Positions 28,118 to 58,417 of a DNA stretch of 64,000 bases are shown piece after piece; position 1 is the first letter of the stretch, and each line of letters opens with the position of its first letter. The stretch is from Moniliella sp. 'wahieum' (taxonomy: Eukaryota), in NCBI GenBank assembly GCA_003971905.1, contig RSEE01000003.1, forward strand, positions 310,001-374,000, read 5' to 3'. The position numbers and the translations under genes were made by a program. The notes beneath the pieces were generated by a model that had not been told where the DNA came from, did not search any database, and saw only the letters and a program-made list of their open reading frames with translations.

Positions 28118-30731
28118 TTAGCCTCTAGCTAAGCACGTGAATGTCGGATTCAGGCGGGATCCCGTTCTTCCCGCTGGCGGCGCAACCTGGCCCTCCTCTT
28201 CTGGCTGATTCAGTACTGACTCGTACGACGGGGGCATGTTGTCGTTCTCGGCGCTCTCGGCCAATGAGTTGAGGCGAGGGATGGCGTCGGCCAGATCAGC
28301 CTGGCGACCCCGAGCGCGAGATTGGGAGCGGGAGCGAGACATGCCGCGGCTGGGGGTAGTCATTCCTGACCCGCCGGGTGTGGGAGCAAGAGGCAGCCTA
28401 GTTACCACAGAGCCATCGAGATTGTCTCGCACCGTGCTCTTCCGAGGTGGGTCAGATGTGTCAATCGAGTGTGTACCTTCCTTGACTTTCTCCCGTTATT
28501 ACTTCTGCGGACAGAGGGCAAACCGTGGGGCCGCATCTTTGGTATGGGTGAGTGTGAACTGGATGGATCCAAGAGGGGCAGATCAGTAGAGAGGGGCTCG
28601 TGAGGTGCAGTGGGAAACACCGTCGGCGTACTTAACCCAGACGCCGGTGGGTGGGTGGAGCCCCGTGGTTGGGAAGAAGGCCCAGCAACGGAGTTACGCT
28701 GCGCTGCGAGTCGTCCACCGGGCATACTCGCCAATTTTTCCATGTAGTTGGTTGACGGGAACATCGTCCCCAGGCGTCCTGGCCAATAGATTTTGTTCTT
28801 GAGCCTCCAAGTCGGCCAGGCTCATGCCACACACACAAAATTCGTGGGTGCCAGGCTGGAGCGGGCCGCGGAAGCGGTCCACGGCGACTCTTCCTGCTGA
28901 ATCAATTCATCAGCGACTTGGTACGAGCGGGGTTTCACCCTTTCCCGATGGACAAGGGCGACTTCTCTTGATACCGGGGCAACGTCACTGCGCTGTAGGC
29001 CACACAGCATGACGGGATAATGACGGGCTGGCGCAACGTGAATGCCTTGAGTCGTCGCTCAGCGTCGGCGGGTAGATCATCAAATGTAGGGTCGCGGGAG
29101 TGAATGATCTCGACGGTAAAAGAGTGGGTGAAACGAATGTCTCCTTTGGACCCAGGAAGAGGTGGTGGGCCGGATGACGTTGTCATTAGGGACACGGGCA
29201 ATCCCTTGGACAGACCAAGCGTGGTCGCTGCCGCACCCCCGAATAATTCGCTCTTTGGCATCATGTGCATCCATCTCGGCGGGTGTGTGGGGTACAAACC
29301 CTTTCTCAAAGAGACGATGTTTGATATGAGGAACGGTCTGCTTGCCGTGTTTGGATGTATAGAGGTCCACTTGCGTCTCGAGGGAGACACGTACCATATA
29401 GACAATGAGATCGGGGGGTGCTTTCGGCGAGTGTACATCGATATTGAAAATTCCACCAACGGAGATGTTGTTGGAGGTACAAGCGATGCTAAGCAGACCG
29501 ACGGTGGGGTGAACATCATGGTACATGACCGCCAACGCGGTCGAAGGTGACTCGATGCTGGGTACCGTCATGGGAAATATATCCCGAGTCGCATCGACAT
29601 TGCTTCTGGCCCGCCCCGCCCAATACAGTTGCTTTGATCGTGTAGCGTACTCGGCCAAACGGCGATCGTTCAAACGGGGCACAGTCCGAAGGCAAAATAA
29701 AAGCAAACTCAAACCTGCATCCCGGCGGTTAATTAGCTGCAGAGCAAACCAAAAGAGGGAAACGTACCCGTGAATACCCTTGGCAACGAACATTCCTTCA
29801 CTTTCAACATCGTCACCATCCTCGTGCTCACTCGCACGAGGGCGGGATACCGAACGATTGAGGAATCCTGCACTAGGCGTGCGGAGTGAGTGAGAAGAAT
29901 GATGGGAATGGTGGAGCAGGCTCATGGAGCGGTGAGAGGAGGTGGAGTGGCCGTGTGTATGTAACGGACCATCTTCCTCGGGCACGGTCGACGGGCGGTG
30001 GAAGGCACGGCCACGAGGTTCCTCCTCATCAAAACTTGGTCGGTTGCGCGAAAGGGATTGGCTGTGTCGGTTCATCGCCAAACCGCTGTGTTCTGAAATT
30101 GTTGACGAGTTGGCCAAACTCTCATCCCTTCGAGTTTGGGATGAAGAGGTATGACGAGATTCTGATCGGCCCCGGCTGGGAGAGGATTGAGGACGAGCAG
30201 ATTTGGAGGAGGAACGTCCTCGTATAACAGAGGCCAAGGCGCTAGCCAGACCAGTTACACTGGGATCCCTCCGCGACCGGCTCGTGGCCCGGGATGATGC
30301 CCTACCTCGGGTCTCGGCGTCGGGTCCATCAATGCTGTCGCGCCGGTTCCGGCTCTGGCTTCGACCAGCTGGTGGGGAGGGGGCCCGTGATGTGGACCGA
30401 CTGTGGCTGGTCGAGTGATGATTGGGGACACCAATCTCGAGTGTCTTATCCATGATGACCCGCTCGCTCCAGCTGATGGGGACGTGGGAAGAGCTGGATG
30501 GGTCCATGATGCCTACTGTCTCGGAACCACGGAGACGGACACGGATGCCGCCGATGTAGCGGTCGCTGGGGACGTGAAGTTCGATGAGACCACGGACTAG
30601 TTCATCGTCTGTTTGTGGCGGCGCGTCTTCAGCCCGGTTGCCAGCGGCCCTCCCTCCGGTGGGTGTAGGAAAATGACGTTCTGGAGCAGATGAATCTTGA
30701 GCTCCGACGGCTGGAACAGCGTCGTGAGCAT
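28118..30731 (-). CDS. Alpha-arrestin-like ubiquitin-ligase adaptor
   Basis: MLTTLFQPSELKIHLLQNVIFLHPP; LVRGLIELHVPSDRYIGGIRVRLRG; KGIHG(intron)FEFAFI..PFERSPFG; Ser/Arg-rich insert; C-terminal PPSY (PY motif). Confidence 0.75.
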
Positions 30732-31517
30732 GGCTTCCAGCAGGGAGGGGGGAGTTGCGCAGGGCGTGAAAGATGGGGGAAGGGCAGAAGACGCAATTGC
30801 AAACACAATGTTGATGCATGGCGAAAATCAACGGTCACTTGGTGAGACCGGTGACCTCATCGCCTCACTGTTGTTTTTACCCAGCGTTCAACTTGAACGT
30901 TCAACGAACGTTCAGCTGAACCGCTGAACGTTGAACGTGCCACGATGCAGCCTGGGCAGCCTGGGCCTGTCTCCTTCGGCGCCCACCGCTCGTAAAAGCA
31001 TACCTCTTCCAAAGGACATGTCCACATCGGTGCTCGGCTAGGAGGTGGCGTCCCAGTTGGATGAGTGATTTGGCGATTTGATCTTTGATCTTTGATCTAT
31101 CATGTGCAGATCGTCTGGCCCTATCACATCACTGACTGCCTCCCATACCGGTCGTACTGGGTTAGTTTTGCTGCGGCAGAGCTTGTGGTTGCACTAGGGC
31201 TGCTGTGTTTAACGAATGTGAACTTCATCCCGCATATGCACTTCCCGGTATTCAGCCGCTCGCTGAGATGGTTCCCCACTGAGCGTCAATTTGCATGCCA
31301 ATCATGCCTTGAATTCGGATCCACCTGCGTCATCGCGCGCTGAGTGGCCCTCTTCCAAACTATACGAAGTAATGGCCCTCTAAGCGTACCAGCGTATGTG
31401 GGGTGTAAGAAACGGGCGAACGAAAAAGTATGCTTTGGCGCAAACAACAGGATGTGGGACGGGTATAAGACAGATGATGGAGTGGCAAGCGATCCGCACC
31501 GAGATTAATGGTGTGTG

Positions 31518-32371
31518 CTAAAAATCCTCGTCGGCTGCATCGTAGTCGCCCTCGTCCAAATCCTTGGGTTCCTTGGGCTCTCCTCTTCACCATATTGAAG
31601 CGCATTGTCAATGTGGGACAAGATGTCGACACGTTCTCGTCGTCGGTCGAGTCAAGTGGAAGGAATGACACCAGGCTGAAGTCAGACACGAGTTGGGCCA
31701 CCGCGTGGTTTAGCGCAGCAAACTTGGTGTTTCCTCCGGGACCTCCGCGCGCCCCGCAGGAGTATCAGCCAAAAGAAGAGGGTCCGGGTCCATGTAACGT
31801 TCTAGCTCAGAACGTGTCCGCTTCTGCGCACCAGGGCGTTGACCAGATCCATTTTGCTCATTAGGTTGACGTGTGGGAGGCCGAGGTGAACCATAGCCGA
31901 GGCCGCACCAAGCACACCTGCAAAGTACTGGGCGTGTCGTCCATAAACTGGGCCTCGAGGAGGAGGTAGGCGGCGGCGAGGCGGAATCCAAGCTGGTTTC
32001 TGCAGCAGATGGCCAAGCGTGGGACCAAGGGCGCATGGGTGTAGAGCTCGATCTGTCCAGGACAGTCGATGATGAGGTAGTCGTCTTCGTACGGCGCCAA
32101 CTGGTCGTGGAGCCATTCGGGGTGGGAAAGACATATTCCAGACAGGCAACCAGGGCACCATTCGGGCCCAAGCCCAGCTCCTCCATCACATCCTCGACGC
32201 TGATGAGTTCACGAATGTCAACCGCGGGCTCGTACCCGAACCGTTCGGCAGCAGGGTCGAGATTGAAGAGATGGACACTGCGCCCGCTTGCTGAGCGGCC
32301 GCGATCAGTGCAGCACTGAATGTGGACTTGCCAGATCCGGCTGGGCCGCAGACCAGGACTCCGTAGCGCAT
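31518..32371 (-). CDS. GPN3: GPN-loop GTPase 3
   Basis: [78 protein letters not shown]. Confidence 0.93.
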
Positions 32372-32731: not shown

Positions 32732-35467
32732 ATGCACCTTCTCCCACGTGAGCGCGACAAGCTCCTTCTCTCTCAGGCTGGCAGTGTTGCTCAGCGCCGT
32801 CTCGCCCGTGGGCTTCGCCTCAACGTCAGCGAAGCCACAGCGCTGATCGCTTGGACACTACAGGAAAAGGCGCGTGACGGCGAGTTGAGCGTGTCGGAGC
32901 TCATGACATGGGGCAAAAACATCCTCGGTCGCGTGCATGTTCTGGGCGATGTACCCCATTTGCTCCATGAAGTCATGATTGAGGCCACGTTCCCCGATGG
33001 TTCGTTCCTGGTCACTATCCACGACCCCATCGCTACGCCGCAGGAGGCAGCATCGAGAACGCACTCTTTGGCTCCGGTTTGAGCCCCCCTGACCCGCAAG
33101 TCTTCCTAAAGGACCCGCCTAAGGTGCTTTCCGGCCCCGAGCTTCCTGGTGCGATCGTGGTCAAGGCCGACGCTGCCCCGATTGTGCTCAACAAGGGCCG
33201 GGGTCGAATTTCGATTCGTGTCACCAATACGGGTGATCGCCCCATTCAAGTCGGAAGCCGTATGCACATCCTCCAGTGTCCTTCCCCTGTTTCGTGCGGC
33301 TGAACTTCCATCTTTCTTTGTCAGACTACCCCTTTATTGAGACCAATCCGTACCTTTCCTTCCCCCGCCTAGCCACCCTCGGCAAGAAGCTCGACATTCC
33401 TGCTGGGACGCTGTGCGGTTCGAACCGGGAGACGTGCGCACGTCACATTGGTGGATGTGGGTGGAGAGCGCCCGTATCTGGCTGGCGGTAATGGAGTGGC
33501 TACAGGGTACTTGGACGAGTTGGACCCCTGTCGTAGCCGAGAAACTCTTGGCTATGGGGGTGCCCAAGGCCGATGTGGAGCTTGCTGAGGACGGACGTCC
33601 CGCCAAGTCAATCCGGACTGAGGATCCCAACCAGCTACGTTGACACGCGAAGCGTATGTTGCCTTGTATGGCCCTACGGTGGCGACCGTGTTCGTCTGGC
33701 AGACACGGATCTTTGGATCGAGGTGGAGAAGGACTTGACATCGTACGGAGACGAGTGCAAGTTTGGTGGAGGCAAAGTACTCCGGGACGGGATGGGCCAA
33801 GCGAGCGGTGCAGGTGATGAACACGTTGGATACGGTCATTATCAATGCCCTCATTCTCGACTGGTCTGGCGTGACAAAAGCTGATATTGGGCTTAAGGGT
33901 GGTCGGATTGTGGGAATTGGCAAAGCGGGCAACCCCGGCATGATGGATGGCGTTACGCCCGGTATGGTTGTTGGGTCTTGCACCGAGGTAATTGCTGCTG
34001 AAGGTCTTATCTTAACCGCGGGTGCGATCGACGCGCACGTGCATTACATTTGCCCTGACTTGTTCCAAGAGGCCTTGGCAACAGGAGTCACGACCGTTAT
34101 TGGTGGCGGTACGGGCCCTTCAGCCGGGACATCGCTACAACCTGTACGCCTGGAGCGGATAATGTGCGACGGATGTTTGAGGCGACGGATGGAGTTCCGC
34201 TGAACTTTGTCTTTACGGGCAAGGGAAATGATTCAGGCTTGCCTGGCCTCCGGGCTCAGATTGAGGCAGGGTGTGGTGGACTTAAAGTTCATGAGGATTG
34301 GGGCACCACCCCCGCGGTCATCGACGCATGTCTGACCGCATGCGACGAGTATGACGTGCAGTGCCTCATTCACACCGACACGCTTAACGAGTCCTCCTTT
34401 GTCGAGCGTACAATTGACACGTTCAAGGGCCGCACTATTCATGCGTACCACTCTGAAGGTGCTGGTGGCGGCCATGCACCTGACATTATCCGTGTGGCAG
34501 GGGTGGAAAATGTGATTCCCTCCTCAACCAACCCGACTCGCCCATATGCAAAGAACACTCTCGACGAACACGTGGATATGCTTATGGTCTGCCACCATCT
34601 GAGCCGGGACATTGCGGAGGACGTGGCATTTGCCGATTCGCGGATTCGTGCCGAGACTGTGGCTGCCGAAGACGTGCTGCAAGACACGGGGGCTCTAAGC
34701 ATTATTTCTTCCGATTCCCAAGCCATGGGTCGGATTGGGGAGGTGATTTCGCGCACCTGGCGTACAGCGGCTAAGATGCGGACGGTTCGTGGGCCATTGG
34801 CCAAAGCTCCCACTGGCCTTTCTCCCGACTCGGAGGGCAAGGACAATGCCCGTGCTCGCCGCTATGTGGCAAAGTACACTATCAACCCCGCCATTGCACA
34901 GGGCCTGTCGCATGTCATTGGTTCGGTTGAAGTAGGCAAATGGGCGGACTTTATCCTGTACAAGCCCTCCTACTTTGGGACCAAACCCGAGATGGTACTC
35001 AAGGGTGGTCAAATCGCCTGGTCTCAGATGGGCGATGCCAACGGATCCATCCCTACTGTCCAGCCCATTTATGGACGGCCCATGTTTGGGTCGGCCCCGA
35101 AGCTGCTCACAAAAACTCCTTCGCTTTTGTGAGCAAAGCAAGCGTCGACAAAGGTGAGTCCGTGCCATTGCCTTTGTGTGGACTGGAACTGACCGTATGT
35201 GTGAACAGGAGTCATTGCCGGATATGGACTTGATAAGACAATCCAGCTCGTCACGAACTGCCGCAAGATCGGCAAGAAGGACATGAAGCTCAATGACTGG
35301 TTGCCCCAAATTACTGTTGACCCTGAGACGTATGTCCCACACCGTTTCCCCTCTGAGAATGCACTAACCCATTCTACTCCAGATACGATGTGCATGCCGA
35401 CGGCGAGCTTATGACTGCCCCGGCGGCAACGCAACTGCCTTTGACGATTAAAAGCCATTTCTTCTGA
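32732..35467 (+). CDS. URE1: Urease (eukaryotic fused gamma-beta-alpha)
   Basis: [88 protein letters not shown]; about three introns. Confidence 0.97.
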
Positions 35468-42752: not shown

Positions 42753-43067
42753 CTTAGACCTCAGGGATGCGTCGATGGAGCTTGGTGGCAGCAGCCAACG
42801 GAGCCAGCAGCTGCTACTAGAACAGCCACCAGGATCCAGCGGGGCCCGCTACCAAGGCAGGGCGCCAGTGTCCTGGTAACCCTAGGATCCAACGGACGAG
42901 CATCGCAAACGGCATGCCAATTTGCACAACCCTATTTTTCTCCTTTGGCGCAGGGCTGCCGCAGCAGATTTCCTGCTCCTGCCACCTAAGGCGCGCTGGG
43001 CAGCGTGGGCCAACGCCGCCAACGTCTCCAAGCCAACTCTTCTCGCCGACGCTCATAAATTGATTCG
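42753..43067. promoter_or_regulatory. Bidirectional RPS6/RPS13 promoter with telo-box-like motifs
   Basis: Head-to-head ribosomal protein genes; TAACCCTAG at 42877-42885 and AACCCTA at 42928-42934. Confidence 0.55.
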
Positions 43068-43596: not shown

Positions 43597-45268
43597 ACAG
43601 GTGCCTCGATCTCGGTAGCGGTCAAGGTCGAAGCTAGAGTGCGCTTGCTCTCCTTACAGGACGAAGACGGGCCCCACCCCGGTCCTAGTCAGTCGGCCTT
43701 GTGGGACGCAGTTCACTCTTTCGCTTCGTATGCACTCTGCACGCATCGCTGTGTCGCATCTTTGCTCCGGCTCCCCCCTATGGTAGACGTCGCTTGCTGC
43801 TGCTGGACGTTGTCTCGAAAAATACGATGGGATCGTCATGCCCTCTCTGTATGGGTCTTGTGGTTTTCGCTGCAGCGTAGCGATCCGAACGGTGCATTGA
43901 TGTTGATAGATTGGTTGGAACGGACACTAGGGTGGCGTTCTTTGCCGGGTGAGTGTGTTTGCGCATGGGGCACGCCAGAACTACTTTCGGACGGAAACTG
44001 TTGTGTTGGATAGAGGGCACATCGGATTGGGAGATCGGTAGGAAGGCGCGGGGGGGGCGGAGCACAGGACAGTGTCTAGCTCGGTGGGAGAAAATCTCTC
44101 CTAAATTACACTACTTGACGCGCCAACAACTGAGCGACCTCTGTTGGTATGACAGTGCTGATGCGATTCTCATCTCGGCGCCCACCTCAGATCCCAGTCT
44201 TGGACATGTGACTTCTGCATAACGCAGCGCTTGAATACATGCAGAAGAACAGCAGGCAAGAGGTCCCGAGACCAAAGTGTATTAATGACAGGGGGTCGGG
44301 GCGATCCAATTGAAACGACTTGCCAAAAGCCATAGCGAAGCCAAGTGGGTTGCATGGCGTGCTTCTTACGGCTTGGGCTGCACGCGGCTTCGGCAGACGA
44401 AACGAGGACGCGCTGGCGGTGGGCAGAGGTTGCCGCAAGGCGGTCGATTAGAGCCCCTGAGGCTGAGGCTGAGGCAGAACGCCAGAGGCCCGAAGCAATA
44501 TGTGGTTGGTTGGTGAGACGGCTGAGAAGGGAGGCCTGGGGGCCTGAGGGCAGAGAGGGTGGAGGCTTGTGTTGTGTGGGCTGGGTTGGATGGGCAAGGC
44601 ACGACGGTGGCAGTGAGGGCCACACCGGCTGTGGCTGCAGCCGGCACCGGCACAGGAGCGCGACAGCCTCCCACCGAGTGCAGCCGCTGTGCACTGGAGT
44701 ACTGAGCAATATCCTGCCTGCTGTTACATGTTCCTTGCAGACGGCGGCCCAGGCAAAGCGCTGGTGTCGCCGGCAGTCGCCGGCTGCGGGGGTGGGAAGG
44801 CTGGGGTAGCCGGTGGCCAGGCTCCGGCGTCCGCTGGCCATCCGCATCCAAAGTTCCTCTGCAGGAGCAGCATGCATATTGCATGCGCATGACGTCAGTG
44901 CAACAGACGAGCCATGGCGTCAGCGCTCAGCCTCACTAGTCACTTCATCATTGCGGCCGCGTTTGTGCCGGACGCCCAAAGTCTGCTGCCGCCCTGGGCC
45001 AGGCGATGGTCTGGCTCGGAGAAATAGCCTCCGCAGAGGGGCAGTGTGCGTGCGGCCTACCTAGTCCCTCTAGCGCCTAACCCCGCCTTGCCCGCCGCCC
45101 AGCACAGCGGCAGTGTCCCCCAGCACGACCGCAGCCACCCTCCCCCCGCATTTTTTCCGCCCCCCCTGTTCTGTATGGGTCGCGCAAGTTGCCACCCGCC
45201 TCGCCTTCTGCACATTCTTACCACCACTACCACCCGCTCCCACCATCTTCCCGCCAGTTCATTCCACC

Positions 45269-46061
45269 ATGGTATTTGGCCTCGCTATCGCACGCGAGCA
45301 CTCCATTGCTGAAGAGCCTCGCGGCCGTTCGGGTCGCATCCCCCCGTCACCACGGGCCGCGGTGGCGCGGGCAACGTGCGTATCCTGTCCCCACTCTCGC
45401 CTTGCTCCTGCCACTAACATGTACTGTCTCGTCACGGCAGATGGTACGTTCGCCCTCGCGTGGTCGCCCAGGGCCCGACGCGGAGGAGATTGCAGCCTAC
45501 CAGATGACGGCCGACCACCCTCCCACCACCTTTTTCCGGCCGCGGCGGTGGGGCAACGTTCGCTCCCCCTCCCGAGACCCGGACGAGCGGGCACGGATTG
45601 CGAACGAGGAGCAACGCGACCAAGAACTTCAAGAAGAGTACCGCAGGCAAGAAGCGGCTGCACCCCATTATGCGCCCACGGGTCGAGGTGGCCGCGGCAA
45701 CATTCATGCAGAAGGGTCCCTGGACAGGTCGCTTTCGGAGCCGCACGAGCAACAGCCAAGAGCGTGGTCGCCGGGAAGGTCCTGTTGGATCGGTACGTTT
45801 GTGATTCTGCACGGATGAGCTGTTCTAACCCTGTATACCCACTAGTTTTCCGCTCCCTTTCCGTTCTCGATCTCGTGAGACATCGGCTCAGCGACGGGGA
45901 AGCGACGCGGGCGAGTCACCCAGTCGGAATCAGGTTGGGGTGCCATTATCTGCTACTGCTTCGGCCCCCGTGGAACACGCACGAGGCGTACCCATTGCCT
46001 CAGAGCTAGCGGATGTGGATGAGGGCCCAGAAGCCAGCGACAGCAACGAGGCCTGTCCTAG
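45269..46061 (+). CDS. Small protein with repeated GRGGxGN motifs (DUF3602-like)
   Basis: TGRGGAGN(intron)MVRSPSR; GRGGGGNVRSPSRDP; TGRGGRGNI; two introns. The end is uncertain. Confidence 0.6.
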
Positions 46062-46443
46062 TCAGCGTACCCCAAGTTGGCCCGCTTCACGTTCAACAGG
46101 TGCCAACCATTTTTCTGTTTTCTTTGTTCAGCCTCTAGCCTTCATATGTACTCGATGGAATTCGAGTTGGGCAAGAGACCTCGCGTGCTCGTGGCCATGC
46201 ACCCCGTTGCTGCAACCCCAAACAGCCACGGCAAAACGGTTATAACACCCTTGCGGCCTAATTTTTCACCTGCGCTCTCCGTGCTTGCCCCGAAACCTTC
46301 CTTGCTTTGCTTCCTACGTGTCATCCTGCACCGACCCCTTTCTCATTGATCCCACTTTACCTACTTTCTTGTAGTCCTAGGAACACAAAATCAGAAAACG
46401 TAAGCATGAAATGTCGATGGGCACCCTCGGGGGTCTACCACCA

Positions 46444-47104
46444 TCAGGCCAGGCCAGGGGGAGTATCATGGCGTGCGATCTCCTGTCGCTTTTCCTTGCC
46501 CACAAGGCTTCGGCAATTGTCAGAGCAAACTCAAAAGTGGTACCAGGGCCTCGGGAAGTGATAAGGTGTCCGCCTGACACGCGCTGTTCTGATAGTAAAC
46601 AAAGTCATCTGCAGCTGCGCCTTGACCGAGGGATGGGAGGTCAGAGACTTGTCCGTGATGCCGCCGCCTTGGCCGCAAGAGGGCCAGCACAAATAAAGGC
46701 GACCACCTTCCCCCTGATCATAGGCTGCTTGAGCAACGCCGTCACCTCCGAGTGTTCGCCAACGTATCAGCCCCAGGCATTCCACCAGGGACAATGTACG
46801 CGTCGTACCCTACGCTGGTGTGTGCGCCCTCCAAATCAGTGAGGTAGAGGTCGGGGACAATCTTAACCCCCCGCGAGCAGGTGGCATACGCCGGCTTCTG
46901 CTCTGCCATCCACTCCCCGGCTTGCCCACATAAGCGGACGTGACAGAAACGCCGGCACGGACTGGACACGTTATGGAGGTCAACAGGCCGCCTCGCAGGG
47001 CTGGGCGCCAGGCCAGATGACTACGCACCCAGCACATCATATGTGGTGGTAAACTCAATCTCCTCCGAGCCATCGGCAAGGAAAATCAATGCGGTTTTGC
47101 CCAT
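46444..47104 (-). CDS. DJ-1/PfpI family protein (YajL/PARK7-like)
   Basis: MGKTALIFLADGSEEIEFTTTYDVL(intron)VRAG; CSRGVKIVPD; YDAYIVPGGMPGA; ICAGP; LITSRGPGTTFEFAL. Confidence 0.9.
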
Positions 47105-47429
47105 TGTGGTACTGCGGTAACCGCCTGGCGAGACAAAAGAGGAGGTGGTGGGGGCACAAACGCAGACGGGAAGTCGCAAGTGGTTTGCTGAGGCCGACAG
47201 GCGGTCGGTGCGCACGCCGCGCAGGCGTCCGTCAGCATCGCCTTACCGGATATGATCGCGGAGCCCGCTTGGTAACGTGGAACTGCATGCAACCCTATTG
47301 TGTATTACGCAATCATTTCTAGGGTTGGTGTCGCTGGCAGCATGTCTACGCCCCCGTGCCTCATCGCGTGTCCGGCGGTCTGGTTGCGCGGCGGAGCCAG
47401 CAGGTATAACCGCGTTCGCGCCGCGCATC

Positions 47430-48620
47430 CTCTTGCTTCTCTTCTCCCAAGTCGGGCACCCACATCGATCTGCACTTCCCGTCTGGCGCTGCGCTTCGGC
47501 GCGGACCGACGGGGGGCGTAGACGATCCTAACCCTAAGGTTGAACCAAATTGCGTAGCCGCCGACTGGTCCTGGGTGTCTGGTTTGCGGGCCGGGTGCGC
47601 TCCTCCTACCGGATTAGGGACGGGCAAGCCGGCGAGCATGCGTCGTTCCACTTGTGGCGTCCCCTGTGGGGACGTTCCTTGGTTTGACGATCCTCGTGCT
47701 TCTCATTCCTCGCTCATGGGCTTTGGCCTTTTGGGTAGGGGGGGGGAGTGACCGCACCAGATATTCATGTCGGTATCGCGCCACGCCTATCCTCTGCCAG
47801 TTGATGCCTTGAGGTGTCTATCGGGTGCGACTTTCCAGCTTTGCTGCCGTTTTCGGTCCGCACCCCTGGTCGTGCCGGCGACCAGAAAGTTCTCTCCTTG
47901 GGGCAACCCTTTGCTGGGGAACAAGCTAAAGCGTGGACTGTGCCTTCAGAGGGCCTTGCAGGGTGGCCGGCAGGTGGAGCCGCAAGGCCGCCCGCCCTTC
48001 ATCCTCTTGGCTTAGACTTTTGATCTCCCTGCTCGGTGGATGCACGGCGCCCTCGGGGCTGAGTGGTCGCCAGCACTCTTACTTTTCGCCTCCCATGCGG
48101 GTTAGGGAGGTGGGGAGTGGGAGTGCTCTCGCGTTTAGCCGTGTTAGAGCTGCGTGCTCGCCTTGCTCGCCTTCTGCCTCGGCCCTTGGGCTTGGGGTGG
48201 GGGCAGGGAATATTTTTGCACCCCGTTCCGGATGGACGTGTCTGTCTGGTTCTACTCTACAATGCCATTACGCTTGTGCTCTGTGGCGCAGCGTTTCTTG
48301 TCGACGGGTTTTTGGTCGCATTGAGACGATCGACTTTGTTCCAATTGTAGCAGGATCCAGAAGTGGTCAAGGAAAGATCGCGGGGGGGACGGAGGGACCG
48401 ACGTGTTGGAGCATTAGTAGTCGCATGTTGAGCTACCGCGGGTTGCTCGTTAGCGTGCTTTGGCCCAAGGTCCCTTCAGTCCTTCCTCAGGCCTACTAAG
48501 GAGTTCCGTTCTCTCGCACCCGTTTCCTTGTTCCGCAGCCAAGCCCCTAGTGGCGACGGGCTGCTTGATGTTCCTCTGAAGGCGTTGTTTAGCTTAGACT
48601 ACAGCCACCACCACGAGTGG
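47430..48620 (+). ncRNA. Candidate telomerase RNA (TER); ends not defined
   Basis: Template CCTAACCCTAA at 47527-47537, two nt after a hairpin (47480-47524) with a C(UUCG)G tetraloop. Candidate pseudoknot at 47823-47889. 23-bp helix at 48072-48127 with 6 G-U pairs. Multibranch domain at 48382-48487. No credible ORF. Confidence 0.62.
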
Positions 48621-50939
48621 GATTGCGCCACCCTCGAGGACAACCCGGACTTCGGATCTCACTGGCATCGCAGATTTGTTAAGCCTCCCACGCTCCTGAA
48701 GCACAACAGGCACACCACTGTCGAGACGAAGGTTCGCCTGGAGAGGGTGCTGAACTGGACCCAGCTATGTCGAAACTGTGTGACAAAGTGTATTCCACGC
48801 CATGCTTCTGAAACGCATAACATTCGCACAAATAAGGGCATTGGGAAGCCTGATGAACAGTGGCCAATGACTAAATGATCGGGAAGACTTACTGGAATAG
48901 AGCAACTCAGTAACAGGGTGGCCGTGAAGGAAACGAGAAAGGAGTCTGGACATAAAAGCAGGTCGGTCAGTACACCCAATCGTTTGAGCAAAAACATCAA
49001 TTGAGGGCAGGCTGGGAAGTCTCAGACTTCCAAGGAAGGTCTGTGGGCCGTCACTGGGCAAGGCAGGCTTCAACTCGAGGTCAATGCAAACGGACCAATT
49101 CAGTGGGCCGCTGGAGACGCATAACTGGGTTCGTACACGCCCCCACCCCGCACCCGAAGGCCAGAGGGGATGGACACCACCGACATGCCGAAAAGCACGA
49201 GTCCTCTCGACCAAGAGGAGCACTATTGCCCCCACCCACGAGGGGTGGCTTGCGTGCCCTACAGTGGAAACTGCGAATTTGGTTGGATACCAGGTGTATC
49301 GATCATCGACAACCCAGCCTTGCGAAACGGCGAGCAAACATACCAGTTGTTGTTTTGTGCGGGCTCCTCGACCGACGGGTGGAGGGAGAATGTACGTTGA
49401 AGCTACCAATCAAGGCAATGGACGTTAGTAACGATGTATGATGCAAACGAGAAGGATCAGACAACGAGGTGCTGGCAAGCACCGAAGAAAACAATCGTGC
49501 CGAAGCACGTAGCGCCGACGAGACGCCGCCTTGTCGTTTCGGCATGGTCATATAGGCCGGGGCAAGGAAGATGAAGACATCATAAAGAGAGAAGGCCAAC
49601 AACTTACCAGTAAGAGATGGATGCTGGGGGGCGATGGGTGATGGCGGTAGTGGGGGGGGTGGGCTGAGGGGCAATTGGCCCGCCCGCAAACGCCTTTTTA
49701 TCGTGCTGCTCGGTAGGTTGCCTCCACCTGCAAATTTTCTTCGTTGGAAGCAGCCACGTGACCCCTTGGCGCAGGCGGGCGCAGTGCCGAGACAGCCCTT
49801 CCACGCTTATGTCAGAATGGAATCGGCGAACGGGGGGCATAGGGTTAGACGCCTGTGCCACGTCACTAGTCCCTCCAGCGGGCAGAAAGCGCCGAGTCAG
49901 TGTGCGGAAGTGAGCGAGCGGAAAGGACGGGGGTCCTGAATCCTGCGCCGCCGCAGTGGAGCAGGCGGGGGTGTTGGATGGACCAAGTAAGCGGTGGCAG
50001 CGCAAGCAGGGGGGCAGTGTGCGTGTTTAATTGCAGCCTGTGGCGCCCCAAGGCCGAGGGGGGCGCCCCTTGCTTAGAGCACACGCTAGGTGAAATATTG
50101 TGCGGCTGCGCTGCGCTGCGCCGTTCGGGGGCCAAGGCGCACCACCGCCCCACAAGGGCAGCCGCATCCCCAGATGCAAGAGCGACGCATTAAGCGCTAA
50201 GAGCTAAGACCTGGCGCTCAGTCTGAGCCGCTCGAGTCCGGCTTCCAGCTCAGTCAGCTAGTCATAATCAGTCATCGCACCCCGTAGTGGACGTGGAGGG
50301 TGGCAGCCTCCAAGCGCCCCTCTGCATTCGGCCTTCTTCTGGGCCCTCCGTCGTCTCGCTATCGCCATCGCCCTCCCGGTCTTCTGTCCGACCATCCTTC
50401 CGCCCCTGCCGCCCCTACCTCCCAGAACCAGTAGCCCAGCGCACGAGAATGGGTGCAGGCCAGCTGCCCTCGGCCGTTCCCGCCAACACGGCTGTTTCCT
50501 CTCTTGATGGCCGTGTGGCCACCGCCACACCATGTCCCTTGACCGCCGCAAGCCCGCTGGCCCGCCGCCTCCGCCCGGCCTCTACGCTTTTCCGCCGTTC
50601 CCATCGCATTCCTCCCGCCCAGCCCCTAATATACCCTTCGGCCAAGCCGCACCACAGCCCAAACCACCACCAGACCCCCTCTGCCCAGCCGATTAACCCC
50701 CACAGTCATTCGCCCAATAATCCGGCCAATGGAATAGGCCCCTCGGACCCGGCTTGCTCCTTTCTTTCCAATGTCCCCGGCTGTGTTGAAGATGACGTAC
50801 AGAGGGCCTGGGTACGGCTGCTAGTCTTCCTGCTTTTTCCTCGCCCGCGGCTGTGCCTGGGCCAGGCCGAGTTTCCTGGGTTTGCCAGGCTGTTGCAGCC
50901 ATGCATCTCCAGCACACTCCCCTAGGCGAGGGGATAGAC

Positions 50940-53269
50940 ATGCAATCGCCCTTCCATCCCTCCACAGCACCGCCGTTGCCAGTTGCAACAGACATGCCTC
51001 TGCCACATCATCATGTCGACCTTCCGAGGAGACGGCAATCCGTCGGTGGGATACCTTGGCTTGCTGATGGACCACATCGTCCTAAATGCCACATCCGCCC
51101 GAACTCACTTTCGCAACGGTGAGCATATGCAGAGCAAACGATTTCTGGATCAACTGCAGCATGCCCTGGATCAAGTCTTAAACGGTGGCACGTCAAACAC
51201 CCATCTGCCGGAACTTTGCTGCTTGCATCGCATGTAATGGGCGCTGGACCGTCAACACCGTCGGCAGCCTGTCCGGCCATGAGCGCCCTCGACAGCTATG
51301 CCTACCCCAGTGAGAGAGTTGCTAATATACCTATCTTCGATTCTCCTGGGTTGGGAAACGGCGAGCGAGTGATGATGATGACAACATGGACCCAGGCTTG
51401 GTCAAGTTCTTACGTTCTAGCCACATTCAGCATGGGCGCATGCGTCATTCCCTCGTCTACAAGACGGGGTTCACAATGTTTCCATTCCCCAGACATTGCC
51501 AATGGATGGGCTATTAGCTCCATTGACCGCACTATTCCACCCGCGACTGGCAATACGTCCGATGGACTTCTCCTTCTCTCGGCCTCAAACTTCCCTCCTC
51601 GAACGCAAGTGACTCCCCTCATCTGCCTTTAGCCGTGGAGTCTACAGCTCCTGGGGGAATTCATCCGAACCAGTGCTTACAAAACGATTTGAGTACCAAC
51701 ACCGCCAACGAGAGATACCAGTGAACACTGCCTCCTTCACATCCCTCCTCCTTTGGCAACACCTTAGTCGGGGCGATTCGCCTTCAATTCTTCCCATTAC
51801 CAATGTCAAGTCCCTCAGGCGCTTGGTGATGTGACACGGGCCCCGTCCGACCTGAGAGGACAGAGTACTGCCCAGACGCAGATTCAGCGCGAATCGGCCG
51901 CCGCCCACATTATCACCGCTCGTGGTTATGCCTACGGCGCATATGCGCGCCGCATCTGATTCTTACGTTATGGCCCCATCTCTCCTGCGCACTGCGCTTC
52001 CGAGGGTCCCCCTGGCCGTTCCCTCACCCATTTTAGACGATACCCATCTTGAATGTGATGCGGTGGCTTCCTCCGTGAATCCTGACTACGGCTCTGGTTG
52101 GACGAGGTTCTCCTCGAGCTCCTCGATGAGATTTGTTCTGACTGTGAGTAAACCCTCTTTTCTGCTACACGGACGATGTCCATTCTGACCCTCCTTTTTC
52201 TCTCTGTTCAACAGTGGACTTTAAAATAGCGCGGGGGAGCCTGTCTACAACTCTTGATGCCCAAGCGGATGGCTCGACTGGACGAGTCACCTGACTTTCG
52301 TCCGTTCCGGTTCCGGATCAATGCGTTTACCAAGGCGTTCCACGAGCGGGTGTTGCAACGGCAGAAGGGGAACTTGGAGGGAGAGATGACCCTGAAGCAA
52401 CTCAAACTCTACCTCTGGTCTCAGCCTTTGATTTCCCGCTTCAATGAAGATGGGCGCAAGGCCAAGTCGCGCGGGAACCACAATTGGATTATTGATGCGC
52501 GCAAGCGTCCCGAGGGAGGGTGGGAATTTCGCGAGTTTACTCGTCGGATTGCGGGGGGCCGACCCGAGCGTGCCTGAACCAACGATGGGTGTGGAAGTTG
52601 CGGATCTGGGACCCTATCGGGCCGAGCGACGGCATTCAGGCCTCGTATGAAGTCAAGGAGGCACCCAGTTGGGTTCGATGGAGTGATGACAGGGTGCATG
52701 ATACGCTCATTGGTACGCCTACAATGCCAGGGGAGGGAGGGCAGATCACGGTGGTGGCTACCTGTGTCCAAAATGGGCAGCCACAACAGCTCCATCAAAG
52801 TTTTTTCCTCGAAGTCGTCCATGCGGAGCTGATGGATCCCATGGCCTTGACCAATTGCGCCTTGTCCGCCCCACCTGAGGCGACGAGCCGCATTCGGTAT
52901 CCTGGCGATACGGCTTCCTTCGGTACAAGCAGCCGCTCCGCCGCCCCAGCATGCACCCCTGAACCCATCAGCGCTGGCAACATTCCAGTTTCCTCTTCGG
53001 TGTGTCAAACCCAGCTCGGTCCACGAAGTCCCTTTAGCTGCGACTTCGACTTCCTCCGTGGGTTTGAGCCAACTGTCGAATCCGTCAACGAATTCCCAAC
53101 CTCATCCTCATTCGCTCCGTATGGCAATCGAGATGCGTCAACAACACCATGCCAACCAACTTCTCCTTTCTCTCCCAGAGCCGCGAAGTACTGGTTCACA
53201 TCACTCGACTCCTTTTGGCCTAGAAGATGGAGGGGCGCACTAATGGCTCTCTGCGCCACTTCAGCCTGA
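50940..53269 (+). CDS. Conserved basidiomycete protein of unknown function (core 52215-52815; 5' exons uncertain)
   Basis: After intron 52144-52214: FRPFRFRINAFTKAF..YLWSQPLISRFNEDGRKAKSRGNHNWIIDARK..WEFREFTRRI..WVWKLRIWDP..APSWVRW..LIGTP, ending in an Ig-like segment. Confidence 0.55.
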
Positions 53270-53932
53270 GGGAGTGTCCGTCTATTGCTATACGTTCTGC
53301 TGCGGTTGGCCAAGTCCGACTTCCCCCGTTCCTTCTGCTATGCAAGGGACTCGACCGATTCTATTCTCTTGCTGGCAACACTTACCTATGGGTGCCTCGT
53401 TGTGTCGGAGCAGGCTCTCCGTCCTCATTCTGGTACAGCCAACCTTTCGTCGTCGTCGTCATCCAACCCCTCTGGAAGGGGCTCTCCTCCAATCCCATTA
53501 CGCTTCTTGCGCTCCGCCTCCCCTTGGCCGACGGTTGTTCCACTTCTGTGGGCATCTCTAATGGCCATTAGCCTGCAGTTTTTCGGCTCTGTTTTTACTT
53601 GCCCCCTACCGGGTAACAGACCATGTCATCCCAGCCATCATGTGCTTCGCTTGCTCCGTCATCTGTCCTTCTTCACGCTCACGTTACTCATCTTGACCGA
53701 GCTTGCTGGCCCAGCTCAGACCCATCATTGTATTAGTTTTGGCCCCTTAGTGCGCTTCCCCATCAACGGGGGGAGAGGGGTACGTGTGTTCACTCCCCTT
53801 CTTCGGTCCCGACTCATATGTGCAACTGAACGATATCGTTCATGTCCTGAGAGGGGGGGGACATTGGCACGTAGTAATGTAGTAAAAAGGTCATACAGTA
53901 GGTGGAGACCCGGCTAGGGCGAGGGCGAGCCC

Positions 53933-54943
53933 TTACTTGCAGTACTGGTCCCACAGCCATCAATCATCAGTCAGACCATCACGGCAGTTCGCAAAGCAAG
54001 AGGGGGGAAACGTGAGCGTACCTTCTTGACCCACTGAGCGGCCGTTTCATTGTACTGCTTACGGTCGGTCTTGTACTCCTCGGCTAAACGAAGCAAAGTC
54101 AGTATATTGTACCACCGCGCTGGCCACAAGCAAGTGAACAAAGGGGCAACATACCGATCGAAGCGACCAACGCATCGTCCGGGTCGGGCTCGGCAATGAG
54201 TTGCTCAATCGTCAGAAGAACTGGGCAAAGCAAGAAAAGGAACGTCAGCGCTGCGTCTTCCTCATCCCCATAATGGAGAGGAGAAAGGGGGGGACGTACT
54301 AGTGGAAGCCTTGGTTGAAGGTTTCCAAGCTTCGCTTTTAAGCAGCCCGACACACAGGTTTCCGCTGTCGTCGACATTGGGGTGATAAATACGGGTGTTG
54401 AACTTGACCTTGGGCGCGCGGAATGGGTACTCGACGGGAAAGTCGAGCGAGAGCTCAAAGCTACCCTGAGCGTAGGGGCTTTCAGGGGGTCCCTTGATGA
54501 CCGCTGTCCAGGAGTAGAGGTTGTCGCTAGATAAGCATACGTATTAGCCTCCAGAATGTGGTGATGGGTGGATTTGTATGGGGGAGTAGGGGATCAAGAC
54601 GATAGAACATACCCGTTTGGCTCGACAACTTGGGGAATGACAAAAAAGCGATGGAGCGGAGGTAGTAAGACATGGTTAGTACGGAATGTAGATGCCGATA
54701 CGCAGGACATACCAATTCCTTGCAGAGGTTCTTTCTGGAGGTCTTGTAGCTCCTGCCAAACACAAGGTTAGCTCCGACGTTCAGTCACACGATCTGGCGA
54801 ATGGGTTGACGCCAGCGGGCTGTCAGGATGTTGACATTTGCTAACGCTCAAGTGGAGCGTTGACGTTGAAGGCATCACCCAACTAGATAAAAGCAGGGAG
54901 TACGGCCAGAACACACCTTGGTAAGACGACGTGAGCTGGCCAT
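53933..54943 (-). CDS. Ubiquitin-conjugating enzyme E2 (Ubc4/UBE2L3-like)
   Basis: MASSRRLTK|ELQDLQ; GPPESPYAQGSF..FPVEYPFRAPKVKFNTRIYHPNVDDSGNLCVGLLKSEAWKP; EPDPDDAL; multiple short exons; YCK*. Confidence 0.92.
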
Positions 54944-56916
54944 AGTGTATGCGGGGAGAGAGAGGCGGGGCGCAGACAGATGAGGTGGTGGCGGAAGCGT
55001 CGGACGTCGAATGTGGTGAACGTGTAAGATGAACGATGACGCGTGTCGATGAACATTGAACGTACGTTGAACGTTGAACGTTGAACAGATGAACGATCGA
55101 TGAACGATGGTTCGATCCAGGGTGAAAATTAAATGTTAAACGGATTAAGCAATGAAGGTAATGAGAACGAGCCACATACGGTTTGTGCACATGTATCTTC
55201 CACCCGAAGATATGGTCTGTGGAGTATATTCAAGATTGAGAGTATTGGCGGTGGACAACCCTCAGTGGCCTCAGTGGCTATAGATTAGATGTGTGCACGG
55301 GAAACCAAAACAGAGGGAATGTGGTCATGTAACAAACCAAAGAGGGAATGTCCTCAGGCTAGCCTCACATATTATACGCGCGACGCGCACACACGTCTTC
55401 AGGATGTGGATGTGATCAGACCTGGAGTCCGGATGGTCCTCGAGGGCGATGGAATCGCCCTCGTGGTGGTGGTGGTCATCTAATCCAACCAGCAACACCT
55501 ACAGAGGAACATCAAGCAGCGAGTCGCCATCGCCAGGGGCTAAGCTGCGGAACAAGGAAAAAACAGGAGAGAATAGAAACAACGGAACTCCTAGGCCTGT
55601 TGAGGAGGAACCGAAGGGACATTGGCCAAAGCACGAGCCACCTGATGGCTCAACAGTGGGCTTGTCGCAGCGAGCACAGGGAAGAACCGCTGTTCCGATC
55701 ATGGTTGTCAATGAAGAGTGGCGAAGGACATAACCGAGCTTGACCCTCTGGCATCCTTAGCCAGCTTTGGCAACGAAGCAATTATGGTTTCGCTCAGCTC
55801 AGTCGTCTGAGGCGATTCAGGCTCAGGGCCCGGCTGTTGGTAAGATATTTCGGAGTTGTACGCCCCTCACCCATCCCCTTCTCCCCTTGTGTATGCCTGA
55901 ATGTACATTTGTTGCATGGAGGCTGGATCTCGATCATTGCCTTTTCGTCTCTCTCTTCTGCTCCCGACAATAGGTTGTTGTCTGTAATATACGAGGGCGA
56001 TCGTAGTCACGCACATACCACGAGTTCTCCTTCATCCGCAGGCAATACCTCATCGTGTCCGCTTTCACAATATGGAAATCAACAAATGCGGAGCTCAGCG
56101 TCCGAGGATATACGGAGCGCCCCGTAACATCAAAATACCTGCGGGGGTTGGATTAATGCATTACGCGAAAACGAGATGCCAACAGATGCATCGGATCACA
56201 GGCAAGGTGTCGCAGATGTCGGGCGGCTTATCAACACATCAACCCAACCTGAACGTCTCAGATGCAGCTCTTCGCGCTTCGCGTGTGCCACGCATCTGGG
56301 CTGCCGCCCTCCTTCGTTCTCGATGTTCTCTGAACCCGTCCACCTCCAAGCCCATCCAAGCCCCAGCCCTGTTCCAGGCCAGTCTGTGTCCCATATTGCG
56401 TGCTAATATGTCATCCTTACCCTTGAGTTTCTGTCTCCGGAAGCATGTGTCGTTCGTTGAGACCATGTATAGACGCCAGCCACGAACATCTCGTGGCGCG
56501 CCAAGGCCAGCAAAAACGCCTGGCGCCAACAGTGGCCCCATGCAGTGGCGGCGCACACCCACAGTCTGCTCCGGGCCGGCTCAGCAGCCGTCCCGTGCCA
56601 GGCAATGCCGAGATGCAGCCGAGCCCCCCCCCCGCAGCAGTGCAGGCCGCGCTATGTCGACGCACCCATGCCACACACTGCCCCTGTGCAGGAGGGACAA
56701 GCGGGGGCTTGCAGACGATCATATACACACAGCAAGCATGCATCATCCATGTCATGCATCATGAATGCCTGCCGCGCGTCCCGACAGGTCAAGACTGCGT
56801 CCATTGTTACTACGGCTGATATATGTGCCCCTGCACAGTTTAGGCTTGCTACACCGTCCCAACCCCCTGCTTCAGCCACCCACACCACCACCAGCACCAC
56901 CTGCCATCTTGTCTGC

Positions 56917-58417
56917 ATGCAGCTCGCCCCCCTCTTTGTCTCCCTTGCCCTCGCTCTCGGGGCCACCGCTCTGCCCAAGCCCAGCCCCGCAGCAGGCGTC
57001 CTCGAGATCCCGCTAGCTCGCAACCCTGCCCGCAGCGTCCATGCCAGGAACGGTGCCGTGGACTCGGTCCTCATTCAGAAGGAGATCAACCGCGTCAACA
57101 CCAAGTACCAGCGCACCTTTGACAACTACTTCGCAAATACGGGCCTGCGCCACCCTTTGGACACCCGTGACCACTCCAGCCGCCGCGGTACTGGGGAAGT
57201 CGCTTTGACCGACGTGCAGGATGGCTTGCTCTGGACCGGTACGTGCCATCCTTCCCCTATCAGATAGCATCCACACATGTACCTCACTCAACATGTACCT
57301 CACTCATCACTACTCTGTCTGCAGGCATCATTGCGTTCGGCACGCCTTCCCAGTCCATCCCAATTGGTCCGTACCCTCTGCCCCCCCACTTCTAAGCGCG
57401 CGCCGCACCATTGGTGGCGGATAGCCTCTATGAGTCTCTATAAACTGACGTGACCGTTTCCCCCAGACTTTGACACGGGTAGTTCCGACACGCTTGTCAA
57501 CCCTTCTGCTTACAAGCCCTCTGAATCGAGCACTTCCGACGACACTCATACGACCTTTAGCGACTCGTACGGTGACGGCACCACTGCCTCGGGCGAGGTG
57601 TACGCGGACAAGCTATCGATTGGTGGCTTGGGCGCGCCCAAGGCCTACATTGGAAAGTCCAACTCCACCTTCCTCTCGGGCGAGGGAAACAGCCAGGGCA
57701 TCAGTGGCATGGCTTTCCCCAATCTCGCTTCGTTCAAGCAGCAGGAGCCCTGGTTCTACTCCCTTATCAAAGCGAATGTGCTGAGCCAAAAGTCCTTTGT
57801 CTTTGATTTGAAGAAGTCCGGATCCACCTTGTCCATCGGCACGGCCGGAAGTCAACCCTCATGGGCTAAAGTGACTGACGCTTCCTACTGGTCCATCGAC
57901 GCCGAAGTGAACGGCAAGTCGATCAGTGGGATTGTCGACTCGGGTACGTATCTTTGACGGGCGTGTTGTATGACTGCAGAAATTCTGACGCAGGCACTCT
58001 CTTGGTTCTGGCCAACACAGGCACGACTTTGGTGGTGGTAAGTACACGCTTTTTCTGCTCATCCCTACCAAAATATAGCCCACCCTAACCCCTTGACCTT
58101 CTTTCCCCCTGCAGGCACCTTTTCTCGAGGCTCTCGAGCTATACGCTTCACTCGGATTGGCTCCTCAATTCGGATCGGGCTCCGTGCAGGCCACCTACGA
58201 TTGCTCCAGCCCCCCTTCCGTCACTTTCAAGCTCGGCGGCAAGTCTGTCAACTTGGGCAAGTACACGTCGTACGGAACAGACGACAGTGGAAACTGCGTC
58301 TTTGCTGTTGTTGGCAGTTCGGGCACTTCCAGCATTGGCTGGATTTTGGGTGACAGTGTCTTTCAAGCCAATGGCCCCATTACCTTCGATGTGGCCAACG
58401 AGCGTGTGGGCTTCTGA
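56917..58417 (+). CDS. Secreted pepsin-like aspartic protease (A1)
   Basis: Signal peptide MQLAPLFVSLALALGATA and a prosegment; FDTGSSD and IVDSGT catalytic motifs; WILGDSVF; FDVANERVGF*; four introns. Confidence 0.93.

Follow-up and report, generated by a model that had tools for sequence, protein, structure and literature searches.

A candidate telomerase RNA locus head-to-head with a DJ-1 gene in an Ustilaginomycotina fungus

Does the structured, apparently non-coding DNA beside a fungal DJ-1 gene encode a telomerase RNA (TER)? We addressed this question in a window of 64 kb (the whole stretch of DNA that was analyzed), which is gene-dense, intron-rich fungal sequence of approximately 59% G+C and in which a preliminary description had marked positions 47430-48620 as a TER gene. 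A telomerase RNA is the best explanation of the locus anatomy, and we judge it fairly probable that this Ustilaginomycotina fungus encodes its telomerase RNA on the plus strand of 47440-48230. We favour this reading because an unusually stable helix abuts a template-length motif, the predicted structure is specific to the plus strand, and the elements follow an order like that of Ustilago maydis. The designation as a TER gene is thereby supported in part: motif, abutting helix, plus-strand fold and element order speak for it, while a canonical P6.1 and an Rfam match are missing.

The upstream neighbour of the candidate is a divergent DJ-1/PfpI gene (Table 1). Its exon pieces correspond to positions 1-23, 41-79, 79-106 and 146-164 of DJ-1_PfpI, with scores of 13.7-22.8 bits each against PF01965. 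Since these pieces are collinear on the minus strand and the ATG lies at 47104, approximately 330 bp from the proposed RNA start, the candidate locus is head-to-head with DJ-1, as had been described. The gap of approximately 330 bp common to the candidate and the divergent DJ-1 gene contains the TATAA that had been reported there, a possible promoter element judging from its sequence and place. It is the gene order that suggests stand-alone transcription from the candidate's own promoter. Among sequencing runs, two of unspecified kind contained the stretch in part (shares of 0.27 and 0.22), and four RNA runs with the same species label gave 0 reads over 46200-50699, even on DJ-1, which indicates that the organism is absent from those four runs. 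A hexamer search found no telomeric array in the 64-kb window, and the candidate region is not repetitive. A transposon identity was rejected on the grounds that the repeat search gave only short two-copy chance families.

The absence of a credible ORF, also part of the preliminary description, held against codon score, Pfam and a protein search. The codon log-likelihood, trained on 7263 nt of Pfam-confirmed exons from the same window, is negative or near zero from approximately 47100 to 52200. A Pfam scan covered 219 window ORFs (mostly of at least 100 aa within 38-55 kb and at least 130 aa elsewhere). It returned zero matches for the ORFs of the candidate region 47308-48875, and the sole match for ORFs lying partly in 47021-55229 was the DJ-1 exon ORF at 46742-47020 on the minus strand. 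Stop-to-stop ORFs of 113 and 189 aa are present on the plus strand, and the longer one has no homologs among 1.84 billion representative proteins. Another ORF, at 48432-48878, has its first in-frame ATG only near the ORF end. The coding-free stretch spans 5 kb, longer than the 1.2 kb first marked, and the missing ORF is therefore not specific to the candidate.

The putative template is the near two-copy complement of TTAGGG that had been noted on the plus strand. We confirmed CCTAACCCTAA as a single copy in the window (Table 1) and found it in none of 100 dinucleotide shuffles. As RNA, CCUAACCCUAA comprises 11 nt or 1.8 TTAGGG repeats, divided into six templating and five alignment bases. Assuming TTAGGG telomeres, it would specify TTAGGG over at least the 1.5 repeats expected of a template. 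Canonical TTAGGG telomeres are given for Ustilaginomycotina outside Microstromatales in the available excerpts of PMC13234504. The predicted unpaired probability is 0.93-0.97 for six of the 11 bases and 0.03-0.34 for the other five (mean 0.57). Counting all registers and both strands, we estimate that such 11-mers arise by chance in approximately 1 window in 8, or approximately 50 times per genome. Taken alone, the 11-nt motif is weak; its position against a hairpin exceeds chance. The only other long template-like motif in the window, ACCCTAACCC at 58082, was rejected because of its location within an aspartyl protease intron.

A telomerase RNA requires a helix immediately 5' of its template to set the boundary. 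The preliminary description had placed the motif next to a 5' hairpin, and the 63-nt hairpin predicted here ends exactly at the motif, its last pair closing on the preceding base (gap 0). This hairpin has a folding energy of -38.5 kcal/mol (z -4.80; 0 of 200 shuffles as stable), compared with -29.9 kcal/mol on the minus strand. For a null distribution, the 70 nt upstream of random positions were folded and a helix domain was required to end within 2 nt. A helix domain at least as stable as the one seen here (-37.6 kcal/mol, gap 0) was found at 4 of 3000 random window positions and at none of 2000 sampled locally, in the non-coding region of 43.7-52.1 kb. The abutting helix thus lifts the locus well above the estimated chance 11-mers of the genome. 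The helix against the template is the strongest new evidence and would supply the predicted template boundary. The outer 5' strand of the hairpin carries a 7-of-8 match to the Ustilaginales element CE1 (TCGATCY) at 47465; nine CE1 cores of that match level occur in the window on both strands.

All structures reported here are single-sequence predictions made without covariation. The 796 nt of 47440-48235 have a minimum free energy of -373.7 kcal/mol on the plus strand (z -3.79; 0 of 20 shuffles as stable), while the minus strand reaches z -1.27, and 3 of its 20 shuffles are as stable. When overlapping 800-nt blocks of both strands were ranked across the whole window, using 200-nt windows with 24 shuffles each and a calibration on the window itself, the plus-strand block 47400-48199 came eighth of 614, and only three other loci in the window fold as extremely. 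Of the region that had been called packed with helices, 47400-48300 bears this out on the plus strand, whereas beyond approximately 48300 folding shows no advantage over shuffles. This narrows the structured unit to approximately 47440-48230, from the 47430-48620 first marked, and it probably represents the body of the proposed RNA.

Table 1. Coordinates of the candidate locus, its predicted elements and its neighbour in the 64-kb window.
Feature	Position	Strand	Basis or remark
DJ-1/PfpI gene, several introns	46380..47104	-	Pfam PF01965, four collinear exon pieces; neighbour, outside the RNA
TATAA	47405..47409	+	Read directly from sequence; approximately 35 nt upstream of proposed RNA start
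Proposed telomerase RNA body (probable)	47440..48230	+	Approximately 0.8 kb; ends approximate, inferred
Template-boundary-like hairpin, 26 pairs (4 G·U), UUCG loop	47464..47526	+	Predicted
Putative template CCTAACCCTAA (RNA CCUAACCCUAA)	47527..47537	+	Single copy in window
UUAGGG copy 1	47614..47619	+	Complementary to template
Pseudoknot-like arrangement	47823..47932	+	Pattern scan
Longest ORF in candidate, 189 aa	47930..48496	+	Stop-to-stop
Long hairpin, 23 contiguous pairs (6 G·U, no mismatch)	48072..48127	+	P6/P6a/P6b-like candidate
UUAGGG copy 2	48102..48107	+	Loop/stem of long hairpin; complementary to template
Short hairpin CGCG-UUUAGC-CGUG, 6-nt loop	48130..48143	+	P6.1 candidate, sequence
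Short hairpin GAGC-UGCGU-GCUC	48147..48159	+	P6.1 candidate, sequence
Sm-site-like AUUUUUG	48212..48218	+	685 nt downstream of template

Downstream of the template, a pseudoknot-like arrangement can be drawn. Stem 1 would pair GGGUGCG (47823-47829) with CGCACCC (47859-47865), with the U-rich loop ACUUUCC next to it. Stem 2 would pair AGCUUU (47837-47842) with AAAGUU (47886-47891), or GCUUU with AAAGC (47928-47932). Stem 1 and a hairpin at 47866-47885 form in the local fold (z -3.80). The UUU/AAA pairs and U-rich loop fit the topology of a TER pseudoknot with its U-A·U triple helix but are weak evidence, given that the same search pattern has a background of 0.33 per kb per strand in the window.

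Further downstream stands the long hairpin, whose loop and stem top consist of GGGUUAGGG. On the plus strand it folds with -39.4 kcal/mol (z -6.74; 0 of 200 shuffles as stable), as against -25.1 kcal/mol on the minus strand. From its six G·U pairs and lack of any mismatch we infer that selection on a plus-strand RNA has probably maintained the pairing, unlike what neutral decay of a DNA palindrome would leave. A canonical P6.1 consists of a 4-bp stem with a 5-nt NUNGN loop, according to the available excerpts of Qi et al. (2013; PMC3592445). None was found in 47400-48700 on either strand, where approximately one per strand is expected by chance; the whole window holds 110 matches on both strands. 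The only P6.1 candidates are the two short hairpins that follow the long one, neither of which fits the NUNGN loop. The absent canonical P6.1 is the main internal evidence against a telomerase RNA.

The proposed 3' end near 48230 was placed there because of the Sm-like AUUUUUG, which is the only A-U(4-6)-G on the plus strand of 47100-49000. Background occurrences of this pattern number 28 in 128 kb of strand, or 0.22 per kb per strand, and the site is unpaired in the 796-nt fold and paired in the local fold, where z is +0.43. Inspection by eye revealed no good 5' splice site after 48218. Searches against the Rfam telomerase families, at E-values up to 10, gave no match in 44000-52000 or in 47380-48420 alone. 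The only weak Rfam match at the hairpin locus was to a miRNA hairpin (E 2.1). We also scanned for the Ustilaginales elements CE1-CE3, which lie 5' of the template, and the Sm form AAU5-6CY, as defined in the available excerpts of Sanpedro-Luna et al. (2023; PMC10035886). Neither CE3 nor AAU5-6CY occurs at the locus, and CE2 is found as an exact match at 47989 but downstream of the template, on the wrong side.

The host was placed with a urease exon from the window. Its best named matches, at 74-79% identity, come from Violaceomyces, Tilletiaria, Tilletia, Testicularia, Thecaphora and other Ustilaginomycotina. The nearest database urease is only 79% identical, a distance at which a TER would not be expected to show similarity. 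In the urease tree, the window falls outside a well-supported clade of Agaricomycotina and Pucciniomycotina. Nor does it group within the supported clades formed by Ustilaginomycetes, Tilletia and Microstromatales; its branch is long and otherwise unplaced. On this sequence evidence, the host is a lineage of Ustilaginomycotina with no close relative in the databases. A metagenome scan with a 50-aa DJ-1 exon yielded 364 pattern matches and 15 confirmed loci. The best of these had 61% identity and 44% GC, none was a close relative, and a template-like word of at least 9 nt was present at 0 of the 15.

Since the host belongs to the Ustilaginomycotina, the candidate can be compared with the Emi1-linked and NDK1-linked TERs within one subphylum. 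The preliminary description had stated that the U. maydis TER (UmTER) derives from an Emi1-like mRNA. This is correct: according to the available excerpts of Logeswaran et al. (2022; PMC9564094), UmTER is released by cleavage from the Emi1 mRNA, in whose 3' UTR it resides, an origin tested by experiment in U. maydis. The same excerpts and those of Sanpedro-Luna et al. (2023; PMC10035886) extend Emi1-mRNA-derived TERs to Ustilaginales, Urocystidales and Violaceomycetales. The putative TER of Malassezia is flanked by NDK1 and a DUF1115 gene, and its proposed source is an NDK1 read-through transcript (Sanpedro-Luna and Sanchez-Alonso, 2025; PMC12506658). We looked for both kinds of neighbour. A six-frame regular-expression search of the whole window for the twin-Cx9C motif of Emi1-like proteins, from which an intron-split motif would escape, returned three matches, at 14.5, 25.9 and 56.4 kb, all far from the locus. 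The statement that there is no Emi1-like ORF upstream thus agrees with our search. Neither NDK1 nor DUF1115 appeared among the Pfam matches of the 219 window ORFs scanned. The candidate is a member of neither the Emi1-linked nor the NDK1-linked arrangement. The published basidiomycete TERs that we found are limited to Ustilaginales, Urocystidales and Violaceomycetales together with the predicted Malassezia TER, all within the subphylum of the host; we found no TER report for Agaricomycotina, Pucciniomycotina, Tilletia or Exobasidiomycetes.

The resemblance to UmTER is one of element order and spacing taken from published coordinates rather than of sequence alignment. In the excerpts of the two U. 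maydis reports, the UmTER template likewise contains UAACCCUAA. It is accompanied by 5' elements, a pseudoknot approximately 350 nt further on, a CR4/5 of approximately 90 nt (a long P6 hairpin and P6.1) and, close to the 3' end, a U-rich Sm-like site. The candidate, for its part, has the 7-of-8 CE1-like word 5' of its template. We derived the UmTER offsets ourselves by merging the coordinates given in PMC9564094 and PMC10035886. They come to approximately +345 to +390, +590 to +680 and +820. The order and spacing are similar in the candidate, where the pseudoknot-like arrangement lies at +296 to +405 from the template, the long and short hairpins at +545 to +632, and the Sm-like site at +685. 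By the same excerpts, the candidate differs from UmTER in that its template would be approximately 90 nt rather than approximately 450 nt from the 5' end, and its length would be approximately 0.8 kb rather than 1.29 kb. Its P6.1-like sequence is also different, CE3 and AAU5-6CY are missing, CE2 is misplaced, and the upstream neighbour is the divergent DJ-1 gene in place of Emi1.

With the putative Malassezia TER, the candidate has in common a compact form, a template approximately 100 nt from the proposed 5' end and an adjoining boundary-like stem (PMC12506658). For that RNA, a pseudoknot of U-rich and A-rich strands and a P6.1-like helix are described, and a U-run of Sm-like form marks the 3' end (PMC12506658); the pseudoknot-like arrangement, short hairpins and Sm-like site of the candidate are possible counterparts. 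Unlike the candidate, it is only approximately 480-500 nt long, and its Sm-like site reads AAUUUUU where the candidate has AUAUUUUUG (PMC12506658). Comparison can also be made with the TERs of Neurospora crassa and Schizosaccharomyces pombe, which the available excerpts of Qi et al. (2013; PMC3592445) describe as independent genes with their own promoters, an arrangement that gene order suggests here. Ascomycete Pol II TERs combine a boundary helix with a template-pseudoknot domain, followed distally by a three-way-junction domain, and have their Sm site close to the 3' end (excerpts of PMC3592445 and PMC9564094); the candidate locus has putative counterparts of these elements. Unlike the candidate, ascomycete TERs carry a P6.1 with the canonical NUNGN loop (excerpts of PMC3592445). 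Their 3' ends are described, in the excerpts available, as products of spliceosomal cleavage, which uses a 5' splice site located beyond the Sm site; no good one was seen here by eye.

Three other explanations of the locus have to be weighed. It could encode a structured plus-strand non-coding RNA unrelated to telomerase, with the 11-mer lying beside a hairpin by chance; we regard this as unlikely, if less so than the other two. Such an RNA could be a divergent transcript of the DJ-1 promoter, or the locus could be a hairpin-RNA or small-RNA precursor. Strand-specific structure fits any structured RNA, and the perfect, G·U-rich duplex of 23 pairs has the shape of a small-RNA precursor, to which the weak miRNA match (E 2.1) would correspond. 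The missing canonical P6.1 and our own estimate of approximately 50 chance 11-mers per genome favour an unrelated RNA too. Under this reading it would, however, be coincidental that the motif exactly abuts a helix in the top 0.13%, that order and spacing are TER-like, and that an Sm-like site is present. It is very improbable that the locus belongs to a fast-evolving protein-coding gene that escaped annotation, or to the long UTR of such a gene. A stretch of 5 kb without recognizable genes is unusual in such a gene-dense window, and the plus-strand ORFs of 113 and 189 aa could be read in its favour. The codon score, the absence of Pfam matches, the failure of the 189-aa ORF to find a homolog and the late ATG of the 48432-48878 ORF all argue against coding.

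The telomeric words could also act at the DNA level. Myb-type telomere-repeat-binding factors, of the Tbf1/Teb1/Tay1 kind, would then bind TTAGGG/CCCTAA words in the upstream region of DJ-1 or of some gene that lacks annotation. Three telomeric hexamers fall within 580 nt (at 47532, 47614 and 48102), and the chance of two extra copies within 900 nt, given the template, is small (Poisson p approximately 0.005), a clustering that was noticed post hoc. In addition, TAACCCTA recurs at 11770, 42877 and 49840, which makes four occurrences against approximately 1.2 expected by our own estimate. The copy at 42877 is flanked by the ribosomal-protein genes S6e and S15, which are divergent. Given this recurrence, the motif may serve this genome as a regulatory word at the DNA level. 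Binding sites of this sort leave the strand-specific folding and the perfect, G·U-rich hairpins unexplained, and two of the three hexamers are separated from the DJ-1 start codon by 500-1000 bp, a long distance given how compact fungal promoters are. We rate a purely regulatory cluster as improbable.

The telomerase RNA reading owes its standing to several pieces of evidence, the weights of which are our rough judgement. The motif alone would give odds of approximately 1 in 100. The abutting helix would multiply these by some tens. The second hairpin, as an independent feature, would add a few-fold together with the order of the elements and the Sm-like site. The missing P6.1 would cut them by about half. 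The true TER of this fungus could lie elsewhere in the genome, for example downstream of the host's Emi1 or NDK1 gene.

If the locus does encode telomerase RNA, its parts could work as follows. Pol II would start approximately 30-40 nt after the TATAA, in the short promoter region common to the divergent DJ-1 gene. The hairpin at the 5' side would serve as template boundary element, so that reverse transcription stops after C47527, and CCUAACCCUAA would direct TTAGGG synthesis. TERT would bind the T/PK-like pseudoknot approximately 300-400 nt downstream and the CR4/5-like pair of long and short hairpins approximately 545-630 nt downstream. The Sm-type site would define and protect the 3' end near 48230. 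In a more elaborate scenario, a stand-alone TER would use a promoter region shared with DJ-1, where its relatives use mRNAs, and would carry its own product sequence as a template mask or telomere mimic. Here, GGGUUAGGG at the tip of the CR4/5-like hairpin and the UUAGGG at 47614 would pair with the template as an internal mask or, alternatively, mimic telomeres for telomere-repeat proteins. We know of no described TER that carries its own product sequence as such a mask or mimic, and we hold this combination to be improbable.

Should the locus prove not to be a TER, it would still be an unusually structured, strand-specific non-coding RNA candidate. If the telomerase RNA reading is true, it would provide a TER from a further Ustilaginomycotina lineage, with its own promoter and different neighbours, which would help to date the origin of the mRNA-fusion route. 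It would also bear on whether a stand-alone gene is the ancestral state, and a compact RNA of 0.8 kb would be useful for structural work.

The candidate telomerase RNA, a putative transcript head-to-head with the DJ-1 gene, contains two copies of UUAGGG, both of which lie on the strand of the putative 11-nt template and are complementary to it. A long P6-like candidate within the same RNA, the 23-pair hairpin, carries the second copy at its tip, as GGGUUAGGG. Given the template, such clustering of UUAGGG in the candidate RNA has a p value of about 0.005. Four of four RNA sequencing runs, which share a species label with a DNA run that partly matches the window, yielded no reads over this locus, the DJ-1 gene included; the labelled species is evidently not the organism of the window and may be a host. 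The second-longest template-like word in the window, ACCCTAACCC, was rejected as a template and is regarded as a chance match, as it falls within an aspartyl protease gene, in a short intron with the ends GTAAGT...CAG.

Codon scores and Pfam searches showed that the candidate RNA stands at the start of a stretch of approximately 5 kb without coding signal or Pfam match in an otherwise gene-dense window, and it accounts for only the first 0.8-1.1 kb of that stretch. Within it, G+C content falls locally to 52-56% and AT skew becomes positive. A second stretch lacking both coding signal and Pfam matches was also observed.

Coordinates of the features discussed in this section, as positions in the window
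Feature	Position	Strand
UUAGGG, first copy	47614-47619	+
UUAGGG, second copy	48102-48107	+
ACCCTAACCC	58082-58091	+
Coding-free stretch with candidate RNA	47100-52200	
Low G+C, positive AT skew	48500-49500	
Second coding-free stretch	43600-46300	
Strongest predicted structure	29800-31600	both
584-aa ORF	29083-30834	-
Small tandem repeat	30885-30921	
5_ureB_sRNA match	33780-34071	-
TAACCCTA	11770, 42877 (+), 49840 (-)	

In the fold scan of both strands (200-nt windows, 24 shuffles each), the strongest structure in the window was located elsewhere, with mean z as low as -2.4 on the minus strand and -1.7 on the plus strand. This region overlaps a small tandem repeat and a 584-aa ORF, for which a Pfam search returned no match. 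The Rfam family 5_ureB_sRNA gave a match of 63.9 bits, above its gathering threshold; since this match is antisense within conserved urease coding sequence, it most likely reflects coding similarity rather than an sRNA gene.

The telomere-like word TAACCCTA recurs across the window, in two cases in the form TAACCCTAG, with a total of four occurrences compared with approximately 1.2 expected by our own estimate. The copy at 42877 is flanked by divergently oriented genes for the ribosomal proteins S6e and S15. TAACCCTA may represent a telo-box or Tbf1-like promoter word.
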